NCBI GenBank assembly: GCA_050249615.1
Contig: JBFWQE010000013.1
Span: 406 to 64,405 of the forward strand
From: Vicinamibacterales bacterium
Lineage (GTDB): Bacteria; Acidobacteriota; Vicinamibacteria; Vicinamibacterales; UBA2999
Length of the DNA stretch: 64,000 nucleotides
Direction: 5' to 3'
Positions 5,061 to 15,840 of the stretch are shown here, piece after piece; positions within the stretch are counted from its first letter, which is position 1, and each line of letters starts with the position of its first letter. The notes below the pieces were generated by a model, which searched no databases, had not been told where the DNA came from, and saw only the letters and a program-made list of their open reading frames with translations. The position numbers and the translations under genes were made by a program.

Positions 5061-5909
5061 GTGTCGACCGTCGTCGTGGCAGGTGCGACCGGATATCTGG
5101 GGCAGTTTGTGGTGGCGGAGCTGGCTCGCCGCGGACATCGGGTCCGTGCACTCGCGCGGCCGGGCAAATCGGTCGCGGGTGCAGCGGATGTGTTCGAGGC
5201 CGAGGCGACGCGGCCCGAGACCCTGCATGGCCTCTGCGATGGCGCGGAGCTGGTGTTCTCGAGCCTGGGCATCACGCGCCAGATCGATCGCGTGACGTTC
5301 GAGGACGTCGATCACCGCGCGAACGCGAACGTCCTGGCGCAGGCCGTCGCCGCCGGCGTGCGGCGCTTCGGTTTCGTCTCTGTCGTGTCGCCCGAGGTGT
5401 TCGCGCACTCGGCACTCGTGCAGGCGCGCGAGCGGTTCGTCGCCGAGCTCGCGCGCGCGCCGATCGAGGCGACGCTGATCCGTGCGACCGGCTTCTTCAA
5501 CGACATGGCGGAGCCATTCCAGATGGCTGCCAGGGGGCGCGTCTACCTGATCGGTCGCGGGACGACCCGGATCAACCCGATCCACGGTGCTGATCTCGCC
5601 ACGGCCTGCGCCGACGCCCTCGAGGTGGGTGATGCGGCACGCGCCGTCGGCGGCCCCGAGATCCTGACGTGGAACGAGGTCGCCGGGCTCGCGTTTCGCG
5701 TGCTCGAGAAGCCCGCGCGCGTCACCCACGTACCGAGCTGGATGGTTGGTGCGGCACTCCCCGCCATTCGGCTGTTCAGCCAACGCGCTCACGACATCGC
5801 GACATTCGTCCGGACGGTGATGACGCACGACATCACGGCACCGCAGAGCGGGAGCCACCGCTTGGAGGATCACTTTCGCGAGCTCGCGCGCGCCGGGGCA
5901 GACCGATGA
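5061..5909 (+). CDS. NAD(P)-binding SDR/NmrA-like oxidoreductase
   Basis: GTG at 5061 lies 6 nt after AAGGAG; the ORF track offers ATG at 5037. The N-terminus VVVAGATGYLGQFVVAELARRGHRVRALAR is a Rossmann GxxGxxG motif. Confidence 0.8.
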   Translation: MSTVVVAGATGYLGQFVVAELARRGHRVRALARPGKSVAGAADVFEAEATRPETLHGLCDGAELVFSSLGITRQIDRVTFEDVDHRANANVLAQAVAAGVRRFGFVSVVSPEVFAHSALVQARERFVAELARAPIEATLIRATGFFNDMAEPFQMAARGRVYLIGRGTTRINPIHGADLATACADALEVGDAARAVGGPEILTWNEVAGLAFRVLEKPARVTHVPSWMVGAALPAIRLFSQRAHDIATFVRTVMTHDITAPQSGSHRLEDHFRELARAGADR

Positions 5910-6075
5910 CAACCCCTCGGACCGGCCACGCCCGACAACGACCTCTTCACGTCGGGAAGGTCGGCGGAAACGAAGGGGGGACCTTCGGCACGCGCCCCGT
6001 GGCTCGGTCGATGCGCCGCGCCCAGACGCGGAGCGGCCCTTGCCGGCTGGAGACCTGATTATGTTGGATTCATTC

Positions 6076-6150
6076 TGGCTCCTCGGGCTGGATTCGAACC
6101 AGCAACCCTCCGGTTAACAGCCGGATGCTCTGCCGTTGAGCTACCGAGGA
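6076..6150 (-). tRNA. tRNA-Asn (GTT)
   Basis: The minus strand reads TCCTCGGTAGCTCAACGGCAGAGCATCCGGCTGTTAACCGGAGGGTTGCTGGTTCGAATCCAGCCCGAGGAGCCA. It has a 7-bp acceptor stem, anticodon loop CTGTTAA, a GGTTCGAATCC T-arm and an encoded CCA. Confidence 0.9.
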
Positions 6151-6201
6151 ACGCGGCAGGTGCGCGCCCGCGGACAGGACTCCCGCGGGCGAAAGGAACC
6201 C

Positions 6202-7629
6202 CTATCGTAAACCGACTTCGCCCTGCGCCGCAAATCCCTTCCGCACCATCCGGCCCCACCCCTGGCGGCCTCGGAGGAAGTCCACCGTCCCCTTCAATCG
6301 CCACCACGTCGTCAGCTGCCGGAACCCGAAGTTCTCGAGCACGCCCAGCGCCGCCAGCAGCAGTAGATCCCGCACGCGCGGGTAGCGCCGGAACGACACC
6401 TCCTCCAGCAGCACCGCCATCACCGAGATGAGGGCGCCGTAGGCGATGGCCGTCAGGAAGAACAGCTGCGCGAAGACCACGTCCACCAGCCCGAAGGCGA
6501 GCGCCGCGCCGTTGACCAGGTAGCCGAGCGACTCGACGACCGGGCCCGCCGCCTCGAAGATGGCGAAGTACGGCAGCGCGAAGAGTCCCACCACGCCGTG
6601 CCGCGCGCTCCCCATCATCGCAGCGTGCGCCGTCAGCACCTGCAGCGTCCCCCGCTGCCAGCGGTTCCGCTGGTTGGCGAGGATGGACGCCGACTCCGGC
6701 ACCTCGGTCCAGCACACCGGGTCCGGCTGGAAGACGATGCGGTAGGGGCGCCCACGCTGGCGCTGGAGGCGGTGCAGGCGCACGATCACCTCCATGTCCT
6801 CGCCGATGGTGTCGGTGCGGAACCCGCCCGCCTCGATCACGGCGTCGCGCCGGAACAACCCAAAGGCGCCCGACACGATGAGCAGCGCGTTGGCCGCGGA
6901 CATGGCGACCCGCCCGGCGAGGAACCCGCGGAGGTACTCCACCACCTGGAAGCGCGCCAGCCATCGGCGCGGCAGCCGCACCTCGGTCACGCGCCCCGCC
7001 TCCACCGTGCAGCCGTTCACGATGCGGACGATGCCGCCCATGGCGACGGTGTGGGGATCCTCGAGGAACGGCAGGACCGCGCGCGCGAGCGCGTGCTCCT
7101 CGAGCAGCGAGTCGGCGTCGATGACGCAGACCAGGTCGTGCTTGGCGGCATTGAGCCCCGCGTTGATGGCGTCGGCCTTGCCGCCGTTGGCCTTGTCGAT
7201 GACCACGAGGTTGGGATGGTCGAGCGATCGGTACAGCCCGCGGACCGGCGCCGTCTCGAGCGGCTGCCGGTACGCGACCGGCGCGCGCATCAGCCCGAAG
7301 GCCCCTTGCGCGGCGTCGATCGTGCCGTCTTCGGAGCCGTCGTTGACGACCACCACCTCGTACTGCGGGTAGTCCAGCAGCAGCAGCCCGCGCAGGCTCT
7401 CCGAGATGGTGGCCTCCTCGTTGTACGCCGGCACGATCACCGAGATGGGCGGCGTGGCCGGCGAGCGGAGCACCGTGTCGAGCTCGCGGGGAGTCCAACG
7501 CCGACGGTGCTGCATCAGGCGGACGAAGGCGACGACCGAGAACCCGAGGTACAGCGTATTGAGCGCCAGGAAATAGGAGAGGACCACGAGGTCGAAGCCC
7601 TGGACGAAGGTGACCAGCGACTCCCTCAT
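6202..7629 (-). CDS. processive family-2 glycosyltransferase (PgaC/IcaA/NfrB/YaiP-like polysaccharide synthase)
   Basis: The start MRESLVTF at 7629 overlaps the upstream stop (ATGA). Motifs: VIVPAYNEE, NDGSEDGT, VIDADS, GAFGLFRR, GEDMEV and QRNRW (QxxRW). TM helices are present at both ends. Confidence 0.85.
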   Translation of the reverse strand: MRESLVTFVQGFDLVVLSYFLALNTLYLGFSVVAFVRLMQHRRRWTPRELDTVLRSPATPPISVIVPAYNEEATISESLRGLLLLDYPQYEVVVVNDGSEDGTIDAAQGAFGLMRAPVAYRQPLETAPVRGLYRSLDHPNLVVIDKANGGKADAINAGLNAAKHDLVCVIDADSLLEEHALARAVLPFLEDPHTVAMGGIVRIVNGCTVEAGRVTEVRLPRRWLARFQVVEYLRGFLAGRVAMSAANALLIVSGAFGLFRRDAVIEAGGFRTDTIGEDMEVIVRLHRLQRQRGRPYRIVFQPDPVCWTEVPESASILANQRNRWQRGTLQVLTAHAAMMGSARHGVVGLFALPYFAIFEAAGPVVESLGYLVNGAALAFGLVDVVFAQLFFLTAIAYGALISVMAVLLEEVSFRRYPRVRDLLLLAALGVLENFGFRQLTTWWRLKGTVDFLRGRQGWGRMVRKGFAAQGEVGLR

Positions 7630-8696
7630 GGCCGCTCGTGCTCCCACAGGAAGTGGCGCGCCAGCTCGAGGCCGTGCCCGCCCAGGCCCGAGGCCTCGCG
7701 GGCGCGGAGCGCCAACACGCCCGGCCGGCCCAGCCACGCCAGCGCGCGCGCCCCCTGTGCCGCCACCTCCCACTCGTCGTCCAGGTGCGCGGCGAGATAG
7801 GGCACGACATCGGCGCGTCCCGTGCGGCCCAGTGCCTGCGCCGCGTGCGCGCGCACCCGCGGGTCGGCATCGCCCAGCGCGCGGAGTGCGTGATAGGCGG
7901 CGCGGTCGCCCACCCCGATGGCGCCGATGGCGCGCCAGGCGCCGGCGCGCACGCGCGCGTCCTCGTCCGAGGTCCACTCGAGCAGCGTGGCGCGGGCGCC
8001 GGGGCCGCCCACCATCGCCAGCACTTCGGCCAGCAGGATGCGCTCCTCGGCGTTGGCCGCGCCGCGCCCCACGATCGCCTTCGTGACCGGCGGGCCGATT
8101 CGCCGGAGCGCCTCGACGAGCCGCGCCTGCTGGTGGCGGGACTGCTGGCCGAGCCGCCCGAGCAGCGCCTCGATGGCGGCGGTGTCGCCGATCATCCCGA
8201 GCGCGTCGGCGGCGGCCGCCCGCACCTGGTCGCTGGCATCGTCGAGCAGGACCACCAGCGCGGGCACCGCCTCGGCGTCGCGAACAAGGCCGAGCGCGAG
8301 CGCGGCCCTCGAACGCACGGCCCAGGATCCGCGGGCCAGGCTCGTGCGCCAGCCGGCGAGCAGGCCGAGGTCCCGCGCCACCATCCGCGCGCGGTCCACG
8401 GTGTTGCCCCGGACCACGCGCAGCGGTTCGACGAGCGCGTCGGCCACGACGGCGCGATGGCGGCGGGCGGCGCGGCCGAGGGCCGTCATGGCTCGCGCCT
8501 GCGAGGCCTGGTCGCCCTCGAGCGCGTCACGGAGCAGCGGCGCGTACCGGGCGCGATCCCGCGCGTGGCGCGAGGCACGCCAGTCGCGGGCGACACGCTG
8601 TGCGATGACGACGACCAGCAGCAGGGCGACGGCTCCGCCCAGGAGGAGCAGGAGGGGTATCAGCCAGTCGCGCAACCGTTCGGCGAGGGCGAGCAC
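7626..8696 (-). CDS. membrane-anchored HEAT-repeat protein
   Basis: GTG start at 8696, 4 nt after the regulator stop. There is an N-terminal TM segment (WLIPLLLLLGGAVALLLVVVIA). HEAT/PBS-lyase-type units repeat: DQVRAAAADALGMIG, DARVRAGAWRAIGAIG, DPRVRAHAAQALGRTG. Confidence 0.75.
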   Translation of the reverse strand: MLALAERLRDWLIPLLLLLGGAVALLLVVVIAQRVARDWRASRHARDRARYAPLLRDALEGDQASQARAMTALGRAARRHRAVVADALVEPLRVVRGNTVDRARMVARDLGLLAGWRTSLARGSWAVRSRAALALGLVRDAEAVPALVVLLDDASDQVRAAAADALGMIGDTAAIEALLGRLGQQSRHQQARLVEALRRIGPPVTKAIVGRGAANAEERILLAEVLAMVGGPGARATLLEWTSDEDARVRAGAWRAIGAIGVGDRAAYHALRALGDADPRVRAHAAQALGRTGRADVVPYLAAHLDDEWEVAAQGARALAWLGRPGVLALRAREASGLGGHGLELARHFLWEHERP

Positions 8697-8700
8697 GGCG

Positions 8701-11118
8701 TTACCGGAGCAGGCGGGCGATGCGCGCCAGCAGCTCCTGTGGGCTGAAGGGCTTGGTCAGGTAGTCGTCCGCGCCGAGCTCGAAGGCGCGCATCACGTCC
8801 TCCTCGCGCGAGCGGGTGGACACCACGATGACGCGGGGGCGCGGTTCGGGCAGCTCGCGGAGGCGCGCCAGGACATCGAAGCCCGAGCGCTTGGGCAGCA
8901 TCAGCTCGAGCACCATGACGGAGGGCGCGCACGTGTCCACCTGGTGCAGCGCCGCCTGGCCGTCGAAGGCCACCACGGTCCGCAGGCCCGCGGCCTTGAG
9001 CCGCGCGTCGATGATGTGCACCACGTCGGGGTCATCGTCCACGACGAGGACGGTGGCCTGCTCGGCGGACACGCCGGCGCCGTGGAGCACGACGGGCCGC
9101 CCCACCACCTGCGCCTGTGCCAGCGCCGCCTCGGCCTGCGCGAGCAGGGGCTCGATGAACCGCTCCGCGGACAGGCCAGACGCCGCAATGCCCGCACAGG
9201 CCGCGTCGAGGCCCGCCGCGCGAGCGATGTCGAGCACGCCGCCGATGCGCCGGGCTGCCACGCCGGCCGAGGCGCCCGGCATGAGGACCACCAGCTGCGT
9301 CTCGCTGTAGCGCCCCAGCAGGTCCTTGCGCCGGAGATCGTCGGCGAAGAGCGCCGCCAGGTCGGCCATGGCGCGCGGCGGCACGCGCACGAGCCCGAGG
9401 GCGGCGGGCCCCTTGTGCAACACGTCGCGCGCCGCCGCCACGAAGGTGTCGGACGGCATCAACCCGCCGCCCGCGCGCGGCGCCGGCTGCTGCTCGGCCT
9501 TCGGCCGCGTCAGCATCCAGCGCACCCGCAGCAGCATCTCGACCGCGTGCACGGGCTTGGTCAGGTAGTCGTCCGCGCCCAGTGCGAAGCCCTCCATCCG
9601 GTCCACGGTAGAGCCATGCGAGGCGACCAGCACGACGGGGATGTCGGCCAGCGCGGGATCGCTCTTCAGCTTCCGGCAGACCGCGTGCCCATCCAGTTCG
9701 CCCGAGAGCTCCACGTCGAGCAGCACCACGGCGGGCCGGTCGGTCCTCGACACGGCCAGGGCGCGCAGCCCGTTGCCCGTGGACGTGACGCGATACGCCG
9801 CGCCGTGCAGGTCGTCGGTCATCTGCGACGCGAGCGCGCGATCGCCGATGACGAGCAGCACGTGCGCGCCCGCCAGCGGGCCGGGCGGGGCCGCCCAGAC
9901 CGGGGGCACGGCGGCGAGGTCCGTGGTGAACGCCTGCTGCAGCTCGTCGAAGGCCTGTCGCACGCGCGGGAGATGCTCGCCAGGCAACGACTCGAGCAGG
10001 CGGTCGAGTGCGATGGCGCGCTCGCTCACCGCGGGCATCCCCACGACCGCCGCGATGCCCGACAGCCTGTGCACGATCTGCCGCACGGCGAGGATGGGGC
10101 CCTGAGCGCCCTTCTGCTCGATCTCGGCGATCAGGGCGTCGATGCTGGCAGCACGCTTCGAGAACCCCGAGATGAAGCGGCTGCGCGCCTCACGGAGTGA
10201 GATCTCCGCATCGTCATTCTCGGGTGCAGGGTGCAGGGGTGCAGGGTGCACGGGTGCGGGGTGCAGGGGTGCAGAGTGCACGGGTGCGGGGGGCACGGGT
10301 GTGGGGTGCGGGGCATCGAGGCTGGCCTCGCCGACGCGGCCGGCGGCAGCAGCGGGCCGCGAAGGCGAGGGCTCGGCCACCGGAGCTCGTTCCGACAGAC
10401 TGCGAGAGAAGGCGGGCGTCAGGGCCGAGAGCAGCGGCGCCAGCTGGGAGGCCAGCAGCGTGGCCAGCGCCTCTGCATCGGGCGAGACGCGGGACCCGAA
10501 GGCCGGGTCGATCTCGGCAGTGAGCACCCCCACCGCGTGTTCGTTGCACAGCACCGGCACGGCGATCGCGGCCGGTCGGTTCGCGCCGCTGGCGCGCGTG
10601 CGGGTGCGCCGTTCCGTGAAGGCCGCTGTCGTGAGCGCCCGCGCCGCCAGTGGAAGCGGGCTGATCCGTGCGAGGAACGTTTCGCTATAGCCGTGCGAGG
10701 CCAGGACGTCAAGTTGCGTGCGATCGGGCGTGCAGGCCCAGACGGCCACGCCGGTCGCACCCAGCAGACGTGCCGCCGGCTCGAGGCGCCCGGCGGCCTC
10801 GGCGATCCCCGTCAAGCTGGCAGAGGCTGGCGCGACGATCGTGCGTGCCGCGCCGGCTTCCAGCGTCGGCTCCGGCGCCCGATCCGGGGAGCGTCGGGTA
10901 TCCAGGGGCGGGCCGGGCACGTCCTCGGGCGCCGCCTCGGTAACCGGGCGGGGCGAGCGTTCAGGTCCCGACGGCGACACCGATAGCCCGAGCGTCGATA
11001 CGCGGGACGCGTCCCCAGTCCCGCGTCCACGCCGCCGCAGCAACGTCACGGTGATTCCCACGCACACCAGGGCCGGCGTCGCCGCCGCGGCGGCGATCTG
11101 GGCCAGTGCCGATCTCAC
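8701..11118 (-). CDS. multidomain regulator: TM - GAF-like - Pro-rich repeat - Hpt - REC - degenerate GGDEF (I-site kept) - pseudo-REC
   Basis: GTG start at 11118. Hpt motif IVHRLSGIAAVVG. REC1 has VVLLDVELSG and GADDYLTKP. The GGDEF position reads RRKDLLGRYSETQLVVLMP: RxxD is kept and GGDEF is lost. REC2 reads VMVLELMLPK, with Glu where the acceptor Asp is expected, and GADDYLTKP. Confidence 0.8.
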   Translation of the reverse strand: MRSALAQIAAAAATPALVCVGITVTLLRRRGRGTGDASRVSTLGLSVSPSGPERSPRPVTEAAPEDVPGPPLDTRRSPDRAPEPTLEAGAARTIVAPASASLTGIAEAAGRLEPAARLLGATGVAVWACTPDRTQLDVLASHGYSETFLARISPLPLAARALTTAAFTERRTRTRASGANRPAAIAVPVLCNEHAVGVLTAEIDPAFGSRVSPDAEALATLLASQLAPLLSALTPAFSRSLSERAPVAEPSPSRPAAAAGRVGEASLDAPHPTPVPPAPVHSAPLHPAPVHPAPLHPAPENDDAEISLREARSRFISGFSKRAASIDALIAEIEQKGAQGPILAVRQIVHRLSGIAAVVGMPAVSERAIALDRLLESLPGEHLPRVRQAFDELQQAFTTDLAAVPPVWAAPPGPLAGAHVLLVIGDRALASQMTDDLHGAAYRVTSTGNGLRALAVSRTDRPAVVLLDVELSGELDGHAVCRKLKSDPALADIPVVLVASHGSTVDRMEGFALGADDYLTKPVHAVEMLLRVRWMLTRPKAEQQPAPRAGGGLMPSDTFVAAARDVLHKGPAALGLVRVPPRAMADLAALFADDLRRKDLLGRYSETQLVVLMPGASAGVAARRIGGVLDIARAAGLDAACAGIAASGLSAERFIEPLLAQAEAALAQAQVVGRPVVLHGAGVSAEQATVLVVDDDPDVVHIIDARLKAAGLRTVVAFDGQAALHQVDTCAPSVMVLELMLPKRSGFDVLARLRELPEPRPRVIVVSTRSREEDVMRAFELGADDYLTKPFSPQELLARIARLLR
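10222..10313. repeat. in-CDS tandem octamer repeat (GTGCRGGG)n encoding a PAPVHPAPLH linker
   Basis: The plus strand reads gggtgcagggtgcaggggtgcagggtgcacgggtgcggggtgcaggggtgcagagtgcacgggtgcgggg. The minus strand translates to PVPPAPVHSAPLHPAPVHPAPLHPAP. Confidence 0.8.
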
Positions 11119-11263
11119 GGCCGGGGTTATCGGCCGGAGATCACAGAAACGTCAGGCCGGGAATGGTTCAAGGGGTGCGCCAGGCCAGCCAACGCGTGTC
11201 GTACCGCGCCTTTCCGCGTAGCCGCCCTGCACCCCGCACCCTGCCCTTCCGATACCCCAATCG

Positions 11264-12496
11264 ATGAGTACCGTCCGCGCGTCCCTGCTCGCCTGTCTCC
11301 TCGCCCTGTTTCCGGGCGTCGTGCCGGGCGCCGCGCAGCCGCCGTCCGGCGAGGCCGTCCTGAAGGAGGCGCGAGCCGCCGCCACCAGCGGGCGCCGCGA
11401 CGCGGCGCTCGCGATGCTCGAGGCACGCCTGGCCACCGCGCCGCGCGACGTGGACGCACGCCTGCTCTACGGCCTGGTTCTTTCCTGGGCCGGTCGCTAC
11501 GAGGAGGCACGACGCGAGCTCGGACAGGTCCTCGCGCAGGCCCCAGCCTACACCGACGCGCGTGTCGCCCTGGCCAACGTCGAGTGGTGGTCGGGTCAAC
11601 CCGAACGCCTCGAGGCCGTGGCAGCCGAGGGGCTGCGCCTCCAGCCCGACGACCCGCGATGGCTGGTCTACCGGGCGAGAGCCCTCGACGGGATGGGTCA
11701 ACCGAGTCAGGCGCGCACCGCGATCGATCGTGTGCTCGCGCGCGACCCCGGCGACGTCGCGGCGCGCGCGCTCGGCGAGCGCATCGACGCGAAGCTCCAG
11801 CCCTGGTCGGCTCAGATCACCCACACGGCCGACTGGTTCGACGATGGGCGGGAGGCGTGGAAGGAGACGGCCGCCACCATCGGGCTGAAGACGGGCGTGG
11901 GTACCGTGCTGGCACGCGCGAGCTACTCCGAGCGCTTCGGCATGGCCGACACGCAACTGGAGCTCGAGGCGTATCCGCGCTTCCGTCCCGGCACCTACGG
12001 ATACGTCAACATCGGTGCCAGCGCGAACCAGACGCTGTACCCGGTCCGGCGCGTCGGGCTCGAGCTCTACCAGTCACTGGGCGGCGGCTTCGAGGCGTCG
12101 GGCGGGTGGCGCAGCCTGGACTTCGGCGAGACGACGAACATCTACGTCGGCGCCCTGACGAAGTACGCGGGCAACTGGATGCTGACCGGTCGCGTGTATC
12201 ACGTGCCGGGCGAGTCACGCGACTCGACGACCTACCAGGGGCAGGTCCGCCGCTATTTCGGATCCGACGGGACGAGCTTCTTCGGCCTCGGCTACAGCCA
12301 CGGATTTCAGCGCGAGGAGATCCGTAATGTCGCGGATTTGGCGTCGCTCGATTCCGACACCTATCGCGGCGAGCTGGACGCGCGCGTGGCGCGGCGCCTC
12401 CGCGCCGCCCTCTCAGGCAGCACCAGCCGTCAGCACCGCGCGTGGGGGCCGCTCCGCCAGAACACGTTCTCGGCCAGCCTGCGCGTGATCTTCTAG
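11264..12496 (+). CDS. TPR + YaiO-like outer-membrane beta-barrel protein (candidate EPS export porin)
   Basis: Signal peptide MSTVRASLLACLLALFPGVVPGAAQ, then ~170 aa of TPR-like helices. The C-terminal half has alternating beta-strand patterns and ends in aromatic ...FSASLRVIF. The YPRFRPGTYGYVNIGAS region resembles the YaiO family from memory. Confidence 0.65.
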   Translation: MSTVRASLLACLLALFPGVVPGAAQPPSGEAVLKEARAAATSGRRDAALAMLEARLATAPRDVDARLLYGLVLSWAGRYEEARRELGQVLAQAPAYTDARVALANVEWWSGQPERLEAVAAEGLRLQPDDPRWLVYRARALDGMGQPSQARTAIDRVLARDPGDVAARALGERIDAKLQPWSAQITHTADWFDDGREAWKETAATIGLKTGVGTVLARASYSERFGMADTQLELEAYPRFRPGTYGYVNIGASANQTLYPVRRVGLELYQSLGGGFEASGGWRSLDFGETTNIYVGALTKYAGNWMLTGRVYHVPGESRDSTTYQGQVRRYFGSDGTSFFGLGYSHGFQREEIRNVADLASLDSDTYRGELDARVARRLRAALSGSTSRQHRAWGPLRQNTFSASLRVIF

Positions 12497-12511: not shown

Positions 12512-13381
12512 ATGTCTCCCCTTTCGCGGCTGATGGTGGCCCTGGTGATGCTGGCGACGTTCAGCTGGGCACTGCTGCCCTCCGCCGCAAGCACGGAGCG
12601 CGCCGGCGATCCCGAGGCCGAGGCCTGGATGGCGGAAAGCCGCGATGCCTTCGCCGACGGGCGGTGGCACGACGCGCTCGCCCCGACCCAGGCGCTGGTC
12701 GAACGCTTCCCGTCGCAACAGGTGTACTCGGACCGGCTGGCCCGCATCTATTTCGGGCTCGGACGTGCCGCAGACGAAGCCGCGGCGTGGGAACAGTTCG
12801 TCAAGGTGTCGCCGACGCCCGAGGACGCGTGCCCGGCAATCGGCCATGCCTACTATCGCGCAGGCGATCGCGCGCGGGCCCTCGAGGCCTTCAGGCGGTG
12901 CCGCGACTTCGACCCGATGAGCGCAGAGGGCGCGTACTTCCTCGGGCGGGCCTACCAGCGCGAGGGCCGCCACCAGGAGGCGCTGGAGACGTTCCGCGAC
13001 GCGGTGCGCGTGGATCCCGTGCACAGCGACAGCCGGGTCGGCCTGGCCAGTGCGCTCCTCCAACAGGGCGACGCCCGCGAGGCCCTTGACGTCATCGAGC
13101 CCAGCGTGTCGCGCGTGCCCGGCAATCCCGACGTGCACCTGATGCAGGGACTGGCCCTCCAGCGCCTGGGACGCCGGGCGGCGGCGCGCGCGGCGCTCGA
13201 GCGGGCAGCGGCACTCACGACCACTTACGTCGACGTGCACGTCGCCCTCGGCATCCTGGACTACAGCGAGGGCCGGATCGCGAGCGCGCGGGCGCGGTTC
13301 GAGCGCGCCCTCTCGCTCGGGCCGGACCGGCAGGCCGAACTGCAGGTGTGGCTCGAACGCACGGCGGAGGCGGGCCGGTGA
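12512..13381 (+). CDS. secreted TPR-repeat protein
   Basis: Signal-like MSPLSRLMVALVMLATFSWALLPSAAS. Multiple TPR units follow (AIGHAYYRAGDRARALEAFRRCRDFDP, YFLGRAYQREGRHQEALETFRDAVRVDP, etc.). Confidence 0.8.
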   Translation: MSPLSRLMVALVMLATFSWALLPSAASTERAGDPEAEAWMAESRDAFADGRWHDALAPTQALVERFPSQQVYSDRLARIYFGLGRAADEAAAWEQFVKVSPTPEDACPAIGHAYYRAGDRARALEAFRRCRDFDPMSAEGAYFLGRAYQREGRHQEALETFRDAVRVDPVHSDSRVGLASALLQQGDAREALDVIEPSVSRVPGNPDVHLMQGLALQRLGRRAAARAALERAAALTTTYVDVHVALGILDYSEGRIASARARFERALSLGPDRQAELQVWLERTAEAGR

Positions 13382-15840
13382 TCGCGCGCCTCGAGGGCCC
13401 GGCTCGTGTCGTCGCCGTCGGGTTCTGGTACTTCACGGCCGTCTTCACGTGGCTGGTGTCCATCCCGTTCGCGTACGCCAACTTCATCCAGCCGCGCCTG
13501 CTTCCAGACTTCATCCGGCTGGCGGAGAAGCACGCGTGGCTGACCGTCGTGCTGCTGCCCGTCGCGTGGATCAGCTTGTGTCGGCCGCTGGCGCATCCCA
13601 GGTCGAGACGGCTGGCCCAGGGCCTGCTGGGTGCGTGGGCCATTCTCGCGGTGGTGCTGCCGTTCACGCCGAGCCTGGCCGCCATCCAACCGGACGGCTG
13701 GGCGCTGGTGGCCTGCTTCACCGCGCTCGTCTTCCCTCTGGGCTGCGCCGTCGTGGACCTCCTGAGTGCGGATCCGCTTCCCGACCTGCCGGCCACCGAC
13801 CGCACCGCACGGGACTTCCTGGCCGTGGTCGGAGCAACCACGTTCGTCCTGATCTTCTACGCGTCCCAGGCCGTGGGATCGACCCCCTGGACGCCGATCG
13901 GCCTCGCGGCCAGCGTGCTGACGCACCTGGTCGCGGCTGCCGCGATGTTCCTCGTGCTCACCGCGCTTCGCGCGCTCGCGGCGCTGCGCGAGCGCCCCCT
14001 CTACGCGGAGTTCTGGCTGGCCACGATCCTGATCTTCGCCTGCCTCGCCGGCGTCATGGGCAGCATCGTCCTGCCCACGATCTCGGTGACGGGCGGCGCG
14101 CGCTGGTACGCCGGACAGGCCTTCGCGTTCACGCTGACCATCGGGCTCGTCGCGCGGGGCCGCTTGCAGGGCGCGGTGCACGGCGACGGGGTGCTCGTGG
14201 CGCTCGGCGGCCTGGTCCCCGCGACGCTGGCGGCACGGACGCTCTGGGTGTGGGCCCTCTGGCTGCCGGTCGTCGCCGGCGCAGGCCTCGGCATCGCCGC
14301 CATCGGGCGCATCGTCGACTGGAACTTCCTCGTCTCCACGCTCGGGGTGCTCATCGTGTGGGGGCTGTCCCTGGTGAGCGCGCTCGCCCTGCTCGCCACA
14401 CCCGGTCCGGGCCCGTCGCCGGCGCGGCTGCCCACGCGCGCCGCGCTGGCATGCTGCCCGGCGGCGCTCGTGATCTACCTGCTCGTCGTGCCGCCGCCGT
14501 CGCACGCGGACACCAGCACGCCCGTCGATGCCTGGACGGTGGCCGATCCCTCCTTCCGCACGCTGCGCGAAGTGCTGCGGCCGCCGGCCCCGGCCGACGC
14601 GGACTTCTACCCGTTCCTGCAGCGGCACACGAACCTCGGGCCCGAGGTGACGGTTCCCGTATTCGACGTGCGTCACGCGCCGCTCGGCGGCGTGCCCGCG
14701 GCCACGCGGCCGCACGTGTTCCTCTTCGTCATCGACAGCCTGCGGCGCGACTACGTGTCCGCCTACAACGCCGCCAACACCTTCACGCCCGCGCTGAAGG
14801 CCTTTGCCGCGGAGAACATCGTCTTCGAGCGCGCGTTCACGCGGTATGGCGCGACGGGACTGTCGGTCCCCTCGATCTGGGTGGGCGGGATGGTGCCGCA
14901 CAAGCAGTACCCGACGCCGTTCGGCCCATTCAATGCGCTGTACGCGCTGCTGATGGACCAGCAGTACACGCCGTGGCTCTCGTGGGACAACGTGGTGGAC
15001 GTCATCGTCCCGCGCGAGGGCACGGGGCCGCGGCTCAGCGCGAACCGGGCGGTGAAAGACTTCCGCTTCTGCGAGATGGTGGGCGACATCCGAAGCCGGC
15101 TGGACCAGCTGACGCCCGGCGGGCCTCCCGTGTTCACGTGGGGCCTCGCGCAGGACGTGCACATCTCGGCCATCACGCGGGAGGGCGGCGGCGTGGTGGA
15201 CCACGACCCATACCCGGGCTTCCACCCGCCCTACGCCTCGCGCGTGCGACGCGTGGACGCGTGCTTCGGCGCGTTCGTGGACGACCTGAAGGCGCGCGGC
15301 CTCTACGATCACAGCATCATCATCTTCACGGCGGACCACGGCGACTCGCTGGGCGAGGAGGGCCGATGGGGCCACGCGTACACGCTGTTCCCCGAGATCC
15401 TGCAGATTCCGCTCATCGTGCACCTGCCGCGTGCGATGCGCGAGGGGTTCGAGACCGACACGACGGCACCGGCCTTCACCGCGGACCTCACGCCGACGCT
15501 CCATGCGCTGCTCGGCTACGAGACGACGCCCCCGTCGCCGGCGTTCGGCGAGCCGCTGTTCTGGCCCCGCGGCCATGCGCGTCCCGTGCGCGCGAGCGAG
15601 GGCGCACTGGTGGCCTCGAGCTACGGCAGCGTGTACGGCTGGCTGGACGACAACGGGCGCCGGCTCTACGTGTCGGACGGCGTCTCGCTGCGCGACTATC
15701 GCTACGAACTGGACGGCACCCCGACGGGCCGCGCCCTGCCCGTCACCCCGGAGGAACGACGCGCCGGACAGAAGTCGATACGAGAGGCGATTGGGGAAGT
15801 GGCCACTTTCTATCGGTATGCGGCGGCGGTGACGAAGTGA
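13378..15840 (+). CDS. polytopic membrane protein with C-terminal sulfatase/alkaline-phosphatase-superfamily transferase domain (LtaS/EptA/BcsG-like)
   Basis: GTG at 13378 overlaps the upstream TGA (GTGA); the ORF track start is 13348. The first ~380 aa hold many TM helices, followed by FLFVIDSLRRDYVSAY, YGATGLSVPSIW and FTADHGDSLGEEGRWGH (DHG metal site). Confidence 0.75.
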   Translation: MIARLEGPARVVAVGFWYFTAVFTWLVSIPFAYANFIQPRLLPDFIRLAEKHAWLTVVLLPVAWISLCRPLAHPRSRRLAQGLLGAWAILAVVLPFTPSLAAIQPDGWALVACFTALVFPLGCAVVDLLSADPLPDLPATDRTARDFLAVVGATTFVLIFYASQAVGSTPWTPIGLAASVLTHLVAAAAMFLVLTALRALAALRERPLYAEFWLATILIFACLAGVMGSIVLPTISVTGGARWYAGQAFAFTLTIGLVARGRLQGAVHGDGVLVALGGLVPATLAARTLWVWALWLPVVAGAGLGIAAIGRIVDWNFLVSTLGVLIVWGLSLVSALALLATPGPGPSPARLPTRAALACCPAALVIYLLVVPPPSHADTSTPVDAWTVADPSFRTLREVLRPPAPADADFYPFLQRHTNLGPEVTVPVFDVRHAPLGGVPAATRPHVFLFVIDSLRRDYVSAYNAANTFTPALKAFAAENIVFERAFTRYGATGLSVPSIWVGGMVPHKQYPTPFGPFNALYALLMDQQYTPWLSWDNVVDVIVPREGTGPRLSANRAVKDFRFCEMVGDIRSRLDQLTPGGPPVFTWGLAQDVHISAITREGGGVVDHDPYPGFHPPYASRVRRVDACFGAFVDDLKARGLYDHSIIIFTADHGDSLGEEGRWGHAYTLFPEILQIPLIVHLPRAMREGFETDTTAPAFTADLTPTLHALLGYETTPPSPAFGEPLFWPRGHARPVRASEGALVASSYGSVYGWLDDNGRRLYVSDGVSLRDYRYELDGTPTGRALPVTPEERRAGQKSIREAIGEVATFYRYAAAVTK

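Follow-up and report, generated by a model that had tools for sequence, protein, structure and literature searches.

To our knowledge, sensing of c-di-GMP through the I-site of a degenerate GGDEF domain has so far been described in a handful of model systems: PelD, BcsE, PopA, and SgmT. PopA of Caulobacter (REC-REC-GGDEF*) is a paralogue of PleD that has lost catalysis, binds c-di-GMP at its I-site, and has protein-protein interaction as its output. The operon of BcsE also includes BcsG, a sulfatase-family transferase. BcsE and PelD are receptors whose degenerate GGDEF domains keep only the I-site, and both activate synthase-dependent polysaccharide secretion (PMC7439463). The enterobacterial BcsE, with a GIL module of the form REC*-GGDEF*, is a dead cyclase that binds dimeric c-di-GMP through RxxD; it is encoded by an operon leader gene, is recruited to the membrane, and acts together with a GT2 synthase (PMC7439463). 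PelD of Pseudomonas aeruginosa senses c-di-GMP through its RxxD I-site and activates an exopolysaccharide machine of the synthase-dependent type.

The regulator described here, encoded in a window of 64,000 nucleotides (the whole stretch of DNA that was analyzed), resembles each of these proteins in part. Like PelD, it combines a probable membrane anchor with GAF and degenerate GGDEF domains, but it adds an Hpt domain and two receivers, and its partners are a GT2 synthase and a HEAT-repeat protein rather than the GT4 PelF. PelD was absent from PDB matches of the domain profile (E ≤ 10), so no kinship was detected at the level of sequence, and because the clade of the regulator descends from Hpt-REC-GGDEF-REC cyclases, its degeneration is independent of that of PelD. 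Like BcsE, the regulator pairs a receiver in tandem with a catalytically dead GGDEF module and leads a GT2 operon, and a sulfatase-family gene in the locus parallels BcsG. In contrast to the degenerate receiver of BcsE, receiver domain 1 (REC1) keeps its acceptor Asp and Lys and is therefore expected to be phosphorylated. A BcsE-like N-terminal domain and the partners BcsQ, BcsR, and BcsF are lacking, and BcsE was found neither among PDB matches of the domain profile (E ≤ 10) nor among the top 50 fold matches. As with PopA, the regulator is a dead cyclase derived from an active response-regulator cyclase, but its order is Hpt-REC-dGGDEF-REC, and the output of PopA is proteolysis targeting, not polysaccharide synthesis. 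PleD, WspR, and DgcR are the best structural matches, whether the whole protein or the domain alone is modeled; they share the REC-GGDEF arrangement and an RxxD five residues ahead of the GGDEF hairpin and differ in having an A-site. The regulator thus adds a new architecture, a putative c-di-GMP sensor inside a His-Asp phosphorelay, tied to an uncharacterized polysaccharide export cassette (HEAT, PgaC-like GT2, and YaiO porin) in a little-studied soil phylum.

Domain organization of the regulator and its operon

The regulator gene occupies positions 8701-11118 of the reverse strand (805 aa, GTG start at 11118), and the order of its parts is TM-GAF-Hpt-REC1-dGGDEF-REC2, with a Pro-rich linker between GAF and Hpt. 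Domain search of the whole protein returned no DNA-binding or enzymatic output domain. A hydrophobic segment at about residues 4-27 (11038-11109, reverse strand; Kyte-Doolittle maximum of 2.0 at residue 8) is followed by RRRGRG. Homologues P0003-P0023 have in common a hydrophobic stretch followed by WRRRR, and the segment is kept in the close clade. It is probably a single membrane anchor, with the remainder of the protein cytoplasmic. The GAF-like domain (residues 113-227; 10438-10782, reverse strand; GAF_3 match of 1.4e-6) is restricted to the window's clade of the regulator family and is missing from distant homologues of ∼510 aa. The Hpt domain (residues 325-395; 9934-10146, reverse strand) has its phosphorylatable His350 conserved in 97% of homologues, and in REC1 (residues 419-540; 9499-9864, reverse strand) acceptor D468 and K521 are each 100% conserved. 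The degenerate GGDEF domain, delimited by the family profile and a fold model at about residues 553-680 (9079-9462, reverse strand), lies between REC1 and receiver domain 2 (REC2; residues 690-800; 8719-9051, reverse strand), as an earlier note had claimed. The acceptor position of REC2 is Glu738 (codon 8905-8907); it is Glu in the window's clade and Asp in 78% of the regulator family.

The claim that the regulator is the first gene of a GT2 operon agrees with the gene layout. A 356-aa protein with HEAT repeats and a single N-terminal TM helix (7626-8696, reverse strand) starts 4 nt past the regulator stop, and its own stop overlaps, as ATGA, the start of a processive, PgaC/IcaA-like GT2 synthase of 475 aa (6202-7629, reverse strand) with the motif QRNRWQRG. 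The synthase matches PgaC_IcaA at 1.9e-43, below the equivalog cut-off of that model, and its PDB matches include BcsA and hyaluronan synthase. Its C-terminus has a conserved GWGxMxRKGF, which we take to resemble a motif of WGT(S)R type in related synthases. A divergent operon on the forward strand encodes a TPR and YaiO-type outer-membrane beta-barrel protein, a probable export porin (11264-12496; match of 2.5e-35), and a TPR protein (12512-13381). A gene on the same strand encodes a membrane sulfatase-family protein that is a candidate polymer modifier (13348-15840; syntenic in loci L005 and L007-L010). The cassette thus holds both the GT2 with QxxRW and the TPR/beta-barrel porin that mark synthase-dependent exopolysaccharide systems, and is predicted to encode one. 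A c-di-GMP module hidden in the GT2 was considered and rejected, as PilZ had no match in the regulator-HEAT-GT2-porin cassette, and a promoter and terminator scan over 5900-11400 yielded nothing informative.

The degenerate GGDEF domain

The reverse complement of 9292-9333 encodes RRKDLLGRYSETQL, so that residues 596-609 read RRKD-LLGRY-SETQL as the earlier note had it, and the translation continues directly into the VVLMP strand that it described. The I-site motif R596-R-K-D599 (9322-9333, reverse strand) was placed by translation and family profile alignment, and the hairpin of the former active site, S605-E-T-Q-L609, which occupies the GG(D/E)EF position, maps to 9292-9306 of the same strand. 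The regulator has three RxxD motifs versus about four expected by chance; its occurrence is by itself unremarkable, and its position is what counts.

Taken alone, the regulator matches Pfam GGDEF (PF00990) weakly: the E-value is 0.2 with the whole protein and 0.0071 with the excised domain, and the scores of 11.8-16.6 bits lie under the 23.8-bit gathering cut-off. A search by phmmer with the full-length protein against PDB sequences matched receiver domains alone. Across the family, Pfam GGDEF matches 31 of 32 members (E < 1; best 4.9e-9). A domain profile built from 32 diverse homologues (27-58% identical to the query) found solved GGDEF domains in the PDB (3ezu, 4.8e-10; WspR; PleD, 1.7e-6) and aligned "RrrDlvGrY-dethl" with "RRsDvvGRY-DGDEF" and "RY-GGEEF". 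The same register is seen in the alignments to 3ezu, 5euh, 3ign, and 7e6g, which upholds the placement of RxxD five residues ahead of the GGDEF position. That the region has a GGDEF fold was likewise borne out, as the domain, modeled with AlphaFold (pLDDT 90, pTM 0.85), has GGDEF domains as all of its top 50 Foldseek matches in the PDB (TM 0.65-0.78). The fold is beta-alpha-beta-beta-alpha-beta-alpha-beta, with canonical helix alpha1 deleted.

The profile alignment also confirmed that SETQL replaces the catalytic GGDEF. No member of the regulator family carries GG(D/E)EF, and the former hairpin columns vary (D/S/G, R/E/P, T/S/A, H/Q/R, and L). The DxD that is 99-100% conserved in the active sister family has become R578-V-P580, with the loss of both metal-binding Asp; a 14-residue deletion takes out helix alpha1 and the substrate-binding FKxxNDxxGH segment; and the lysine of ADxxLYxAK is lost as well. 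The former active site is occupied by R578, which is family-specific and 93% conserved, and by H/Q/R608. Loss of all catalytic residues together with the deletion ruled out a still-active cyclase, and the regulator, judged from its sequence, is unable to make c-di-GMP.

We compared 120 degenerate and 120 active homologues column by column. RxxD is the best-conserved motif of the degenerate domain, with R596 at 99% and D599 at 100% even though some homologues are only ∼30% identical in the GGDEF domain, against free drift in the former active site. The corresponding values for the active sister family are 100% and 99%. Among 32 diverse members, only two of 143 columns of the domain are invariant, and D599 is one of them. 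RxxD is also present in 11 of 12 canonical GGDEF domains of the host genome, so the presence of the motif alone is inherited and carries weight only where it has outlasted catalysis. These patterns show strong purifying selection on the I-site motif throughout a deep clade with a single origin. A candidate third I-site residue is R624 on helix alpha3 (9247-9249, reverse strand), which is family-specific and 79% conserved; at this column, 91% of active sister family members have Ala. It sits one helical turn before the column equivalent to PleD R390 and PelD R402; the column that matches PleD R390, counted from the conserved Pro, is G/A/E in the degenerate family and Lys in 78% of the active sister family. 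The nearby R624 alone could substitute for PleD R390 as the third I-site arginine.

Active homologues in other phyla

Loci in Planctomycetota, Gemmatimonadota, and Fidelibacterota (L011, L036, and L037) encode a homologue of the regulator with an intact GGEEF cyclase. These homologues are 26-32% identical to the regulator over their full length, have the same four domains (Hpt-REC-GGDEF-REC), and lie directly upstream of HEAT and GT2 in L011 and L037 and two genes upstream in L036. Their GT2 synthases are 48-52% identical to that of the window. A YaiO porin is present in L011 and L037; none was seen in the Gemmatimonadota locus, which has the HEAT-GT2 part of the cassette. In the active family, GGEEF or GGDEF is found in 113 of 120 members and all catalytic residues are kept. 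A second regulator in L036 (9925-11454) was rejected as a tandem degenerate cyclase paralogue, as it reads REC-Hpt-pseudo-REC-REC with no GGDEF-like region.

In the tree, degenerate regulators form a single clade (support of 1.0) separate from the active homologues. Because a similar gene set elsewhere carries an intact GGEEF cyclase, the acidobacterial regulator is most likely a former dedicated cyclase that lost catalysis and retained nothing but the site that binds its product. The degenerate and active cassettes make a clean comparative pair for asking how a local source of c-di-GMP becomes a receptor and at which point such machines read the signal.

A putative c-di-GMP switch and its alternatives

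We consider it probable that the regulator is a membrane-anchored phosphorelay protein in which a dead cyclase domain has kept its I-site as a c-di-GMP receptor for the synthase. Such a receptor is the best explanation of the regulator, one in which we infer both the binding and the link to the synthase. The genome encodes at least 12 GGDEF, 5 EAL, and 5 PilZ proteins, none within the cassette, a gene content that indicates a working c-di-GMP network. In the proposed switch, c-di-GMP from roughly 12 other cyclases of the genome would bind the I-site, probably as an intercalated dimer, and would cross-link the GGDEF domain to a neighboring receiver, switching the conformation of the regulator as in PleD and WspR. 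Since the regulator lacks any output domain for DNA binding or enzymatic activity, it would either contact proteins of the HEAT/GT2 membrane complex, with which it is co-translated, or gate phosphotransfer between Hpt and REC. Both routes would amount to on-off control of polysaccharide synthesis and export. An interaction with HEAT/GT2 is inferred from gene order only.

The chief competitor, which we regard as unlikely though it deserves weight, is that the dead GGDEF domain is a structural relic, a spacer or dimerization module between receivers whose RxxD forms a salt bridge, within the molecule or between domains, and binds no nucleotide, with regulation left to GAF and His-Asp phosphotransfer. 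The conserved Hpt His and REC1 Asp and Lys mark the phosphorelay as clearly functional, the third I-site Arg is absent from its canonical column, and histidine kinases adjoin the cassette in L001, L003, L011, L036, and L037, all of which are consistent with a relic. However, many GGDEF domains lack RxxD and the motif is dispensable for the fold in general, yet R596 and D599 are the best-conserved residues of a domain in which most other columns vary. The proven receptors PelD and BcsE are defined by this same pattern (PMC7439463). It is also conceivable, but improbable, that the I-site binds c-di-GMP and the regulator is a c-di-GMP-gated phosphorelay hub that hands phosphate through Hpt to a response regulator elsewhere, such as a transcription factor, with the operon reflecting co-expression only. 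Hpt and two receivers supply all but one of the four modules that make up a phosphorelay, and extra single-domain REC and Hpt genes lie beside the cassette in L003, L036, and L037. Against a remote output stand the order regulator-HEAT-GT2, which at least four phyla keep with genes that abut or overlap, and the N-terminal anchor, which in the window's clade would place the regulator at the membrane next to the synthase.

We give very little credence to the binding of another nucleotide, such as (p)ppGpp, GTP, or a different cyclic dinucleotide, at the I-site or the remnant active site. PleD structures 9g85 and 9g86 do hold ppGpp or pppGpp beside c-di-GMP, and the former active site is filled by the family-specific R578 and H/Q/R608, but the A-site segment that binds guanine and phosphate has been deleted, and RxxD is the classic c-di-GMP motif.

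A qualification of the receptor reading is that the ancestral cassette carried its own cyclase; as the regulator descends from a local producer of c-di-GMP, the synthase complex may hold a c-di-GMP site of its own. The receptor that activates the synthase may then be part of the HEAT/GT2 complex, an arrangement like that of PgaC-PgaD, and the regulator could have another role.

Returning to the regulator as receptor, we offer as a tentative and rather doubtful extension that regulator-HEAT-GT2-YaiO is an undescribed synthase-dependent exopolysaccharide machine whose on-switch is the c-di-GMP-loaded I-site of the regulator, instead of PilZ or MshEN; active homologues would both make and sense the signal, each a self-contained local source and effector, and acidobacteria would have given up the source and kept the effector half. 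If so, the family would be a natural experiment showing that a cyclase can use its "inhibitory" site for output. A literature search found no account of the regulator-HEAT-GT2-YaiO cassette or of the regulator architecture. The cassette points to a candidate matrix or biofilm polymer in Vicinamibacterales, an order abundant in soil for which there is almost no genetics, and its gene set recurs across Acidobacteriota: the operon with its YaiO porin is conserved in L001, L003, and L005-L010, and the regulator gene is linked to HEAT and GT2 in all acidobacterial loci examined.

Domain architecture and fold of the regulator

The regulator P0001 (805 aa) is encoded by ORF 8701-11118 on the minus strand. 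Pfam assigns to it a GAF_3 domain (residues 113-227), an Hpt domain (residues 325-395), and two receiver domains, REC1 and REC2 (residues about 419-540 and 690-800, respectively), which flank the central domain as the earlier note had described. The only match between the receivers is a weak one to GGDEF (E = 0.2; residues 585-670 against profile positions 60-155). Domain searches of the whole protein found neither a DNA-binding nor an enzymatic output domain. At the N-terminus, a hydrophobic stretch that precedes RRRGRG and is kept in close homologues is probably a single membrane anchor. The GAF-Hpt linker has a proline-rich imperfect repeat, PAPVHSAPLHPAPVHPAPLHPAP (residues about 277-306; about 10200-10290, minus strand).

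The earlier note had read an RxxD motif and SETQL at 9292-9333, and minus-strand translation agrees: the reverse complement, RRKDLLGRYSETQL, corresponds to residues 596-609 and is directly followed by VVLMP. RxxD occurs three times in P0001 (∼4 expected by chance); the motif alone is therefore uninformative, and the test lies in register, fold, and conservation. The 120 best-scoring of many database matches to P0001 share a core of ∼510 aa arranged as Hpt-REC-X-REC, where X is the central domain. A profile of X built from 32 diverse members (27-58% identity to the query) matched solved GGDEF domains (3ezu, 4.8e-10; WspR, ∼1e-6; PleD, 1.7e-6), with "RrrDlvGrY-dethl" aligned on "RRsDvvGRY-DGDEF", "RY-GGEEF", and similar strings. 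These alignments give the register originally proposed, with RxxD five residues before the GGDEF position. Individually, 31 of the 32 profile members match Pfam GGDEF.

Structure prediction yields the same fold. AlphaFold2 with the family alignment gave a pLDDT of 91 for residues 300-805, and of 90 (pTM 0.85) for the central domain alone, whose topology is beta-alpha-beta-beta-alpha-beta-alpha-beta. RxxD is in the loop preceding the beta2-beta3 hairpin and SETQL is at the hairpin tip. In a Foldseek search of the PDB, the top 50 matches to the domain model are all GGDEF domains (TM 0.65-0.78), and the best structural matches of the whole model are PleD, WspR, and DgcR. The central domain is almost certainly a degenerate GGDEF domain with an intact I-site motif, I-site denoting the allosteric product-binding site.

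Phosphorelay residues are conserved across the degenerate family, the P0001 homologues with a dead GGDEF domain: Hpt His350 in 97%, and D468 and K521 of REC1 each in 100%. The acceptor position of REC2 is a glutamate in the clade of the window (E738; 8905-8907, minus strand); across the family, 19% of members have Glu there and 78% have Asp. In P0001, REC2 cannot be phosphorylated and may mimic the on-state. The acidic pocket of REC1 (residues 424-426; 9841-9849, minus strand) reads I-G-D versus a family consensus of E-D-D, with D468 and K521 intact, which may alter metal binding and phosphorylation efficiency.

Loss of catalysis and retention of the I-site

A search with the regulator of a related Planctomycetota locus (L011, 5023-10597) uncovered a large sister family of Hpt-REC-GGDEF-REC proteins. 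The L011 regulator has this architecture, with a full-length, intact GGDEF domain containing RKSDIVARWGGEEF. Among 120 sister-family members retrieved, 113 have GGEEF/GGDEF and 112 of these 113 have RxxD; source annotations assign family members to Fibrobacterota, Fidelibacterota, Gemmatimonadota, Planctomycetota, Lentisphaerota, Verrucomicrobiota, and Acidobacteriota.

Alignment of 120 members of each family allowed columns to be compared. The beta1 DxD is present in 99-100% of the active family and is R578-x-P in the degenerate family. G-G-E/D-E-F, conserved at 97-99% per position in active members, drifts to D/S/G, R/E/P, T/S/A, H/Q/R, and L; the Lys of ADxxLYxAK (100%) becomes Arg or Gln; and the FKxxNDxxGH segment is gone through a 14-residue deletion. 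The I-site Arg is in 100% of active and 99% of degenerate members, and the Asp in 99% and 100%, respectively. Only two columns of the central domain are invariant in the 32-member alignment, one being D599. In the window's genome, 11 of 12 canonical GGDEF domains also have RxxD, five residues before the active site. The motif was therefore inherited, and what counts as evidence is that it was kept once catalysis was lost. The uniform reliance on product inhibition that RxxD implies for these domains is unusual.

The column matching PleD R390, counted from a conserved Pro, is Lys in 78% of active members and varies among degenerate ones. One helical turn before it, R624 is specific to the degenerate family (79%; Ala in 91% of active members) and, judged from the alignment, is a candidate residue that possibly completes the I-site pocket. 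In place of the first metal-binding Asp of beta1, 93% of the degenerate family have an Arg, R578 (9385-9387, minus strand), and most members have His, Gln, or Arg at position 608. The former active site seems to have been refilled with conserved polar residues, not merely to be decaying.

In a FastTree phylogeny the degenerate family is one clade on a long separating branch (support 1.0). L011 has kinase, regulator, HEAT, GT2 (52% identical), and YaiO genes in the order of the window. An active cyclase is immediately upstream of HEAT-GT2-YaiO in a Fidelibacterota locus (L037, 4319-12381) and two genes upstream of HEAT-GT2, the only part of that set seen, in a Gemmatimonadota MAG (L036, 5096-14089). 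No link of an active cyclase to HEAT, GT2, or YaiO-type genes was present in L035, L038, and L039. The simplest reading is a single loss of catalysis, in an acidobacterial lineage, by a cyclase that was dedicated to the cassette and kept its I-site. Hpt, REC, or kinase genes precede the active cyclase in the L011 and L037 cassettes, both from MAGs. L036 has, between cyclase and HEAT gene, a single-domain REC and an additional protein, REC-Hpt-(pseudo-receiver-like region)-REC (9925-11454).

A candidate c-di-GMP reader in a synthase cassette

The HEAT-repeat protein (356 aa, one N-terminal TM helix) is encoded from 4 nt past the regulator stop codon, and the start of the GT2 gene (475 aa) overlaps the HEAT stop (ATGA). 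GT2 carries QRNRWQRG and matches PgaC/IcaA at 1.9e-43, under the equivalog cut-off, as well as BcsA and hyaluronan synthase. Divergent genes encode a TPR and YaiO-type beta-barrel protein, a TPR protein, and a membrane sulfatase-family protein. The genome encodes at least 12 GGDEF, 5 EAL, and 5 PilZ proteins; in the genome-wide listing none is within the cassette.

If the ancestral regulator was a local supply of c-di-GMP, the cassette must hold a reader. By analogy to PgaC-PgaD this could be the HEAT/GT2 complex, in which case the dead domain might have a secondary sensing role or be a relic. Alternatively, it could be the regulator's own I-site. We know of no function of RxxD in a GGDEF fold besides c-di-GMP binding, and for this reason, together with the precedent of PelD and BcsE, we propose binding at R596/D599. 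In those proteins a dead GGDEF domain with an intact I-site can sense c-di-GMP on behalf of a synthase-dependent secretion system (PMC7439463). The receptor role suggested in the earlier note is supported in silico by register, fold, and retention of RxxD after catalysis was lost, and we consider it probable that the central domain binds c-di-GMP. In the proposed mechanism, c-di-GMP from other cyclases would bind R596/D599, possibly helped by R624, and tie the GGDEF domain to an adjoining receiver as in PleD product inhibition. The co-translated HEAT and GT2 proteins would sense this conformational switch as a complex at the membrane, or else the switch would control phosphotransfer between Hpt and REC; the GAF domain and REC1 phosphorylation would be further inputs. 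The chances that the HEAT/GT2 synthase is the direct target are about even.

The closest systems by function are PelD (TM-GAF-dGGDEF), BcsE (REC*-GGDEF*, an operon leader with a GT2 partner), and PopA (a response-regulator cyclase paralogue that is catalytically dead). Neither the domain profile nor Foldseek against the PDB linked the central domain to PelD or BcsE in sequence; P0001 is truly related to the Hpt-REC-GGDEF-REC cyclases. In silico evidence supports P0001 as a variant of this known kind of sensor.

Distribution in Acidobacteriota and flanking genes

The window's own genome is that of a Vicinamibacterales-type acidobacterium. Regulator-HEAT-GT2 and a YaiO porin recur in acidobacterial loci L001, L003, and L005-L010, with regulators 40-94% and GT2 67-95% identical to those of the window. 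The central domain is present in 5 of 301 sampled genomes of the phylum, all from the same order, and the cassette is therefore patchy. L006 (CAZLBU010000233.1), a 4.6-kb contig with 91-96% protein identity to the window's regulator-HEAT-GT2, is labelled "uncultured Bifidobacteriaceae", probably a binning error. In the L009 MAG, tblastn matches to the genes for the sulfatase-family protein, the regulator, and GT2 are split (650-2250, 6580-6600, and 8859-8861), which suggests frameshifts; these may be assembly errors or pseudogenes.

The sulfatase-family membrane protein (830 aa; 13348-15840, plus strand) is encoded by a gene that overlaps the TPR gene at its end and is syntenic in L005 and L007-L010. 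We take it to resemble polymer-modifying transferases such as BcsG, and by this analogy the polymer of the cassette may carry a substituent. The GT2 C-terminus (6202-6300, minus strand) has a conserved W(W)R-x-(K/R)GT ... R-x-GWG-x-M-x-RKGF, common to the Planctomycetota GT2 of L011.
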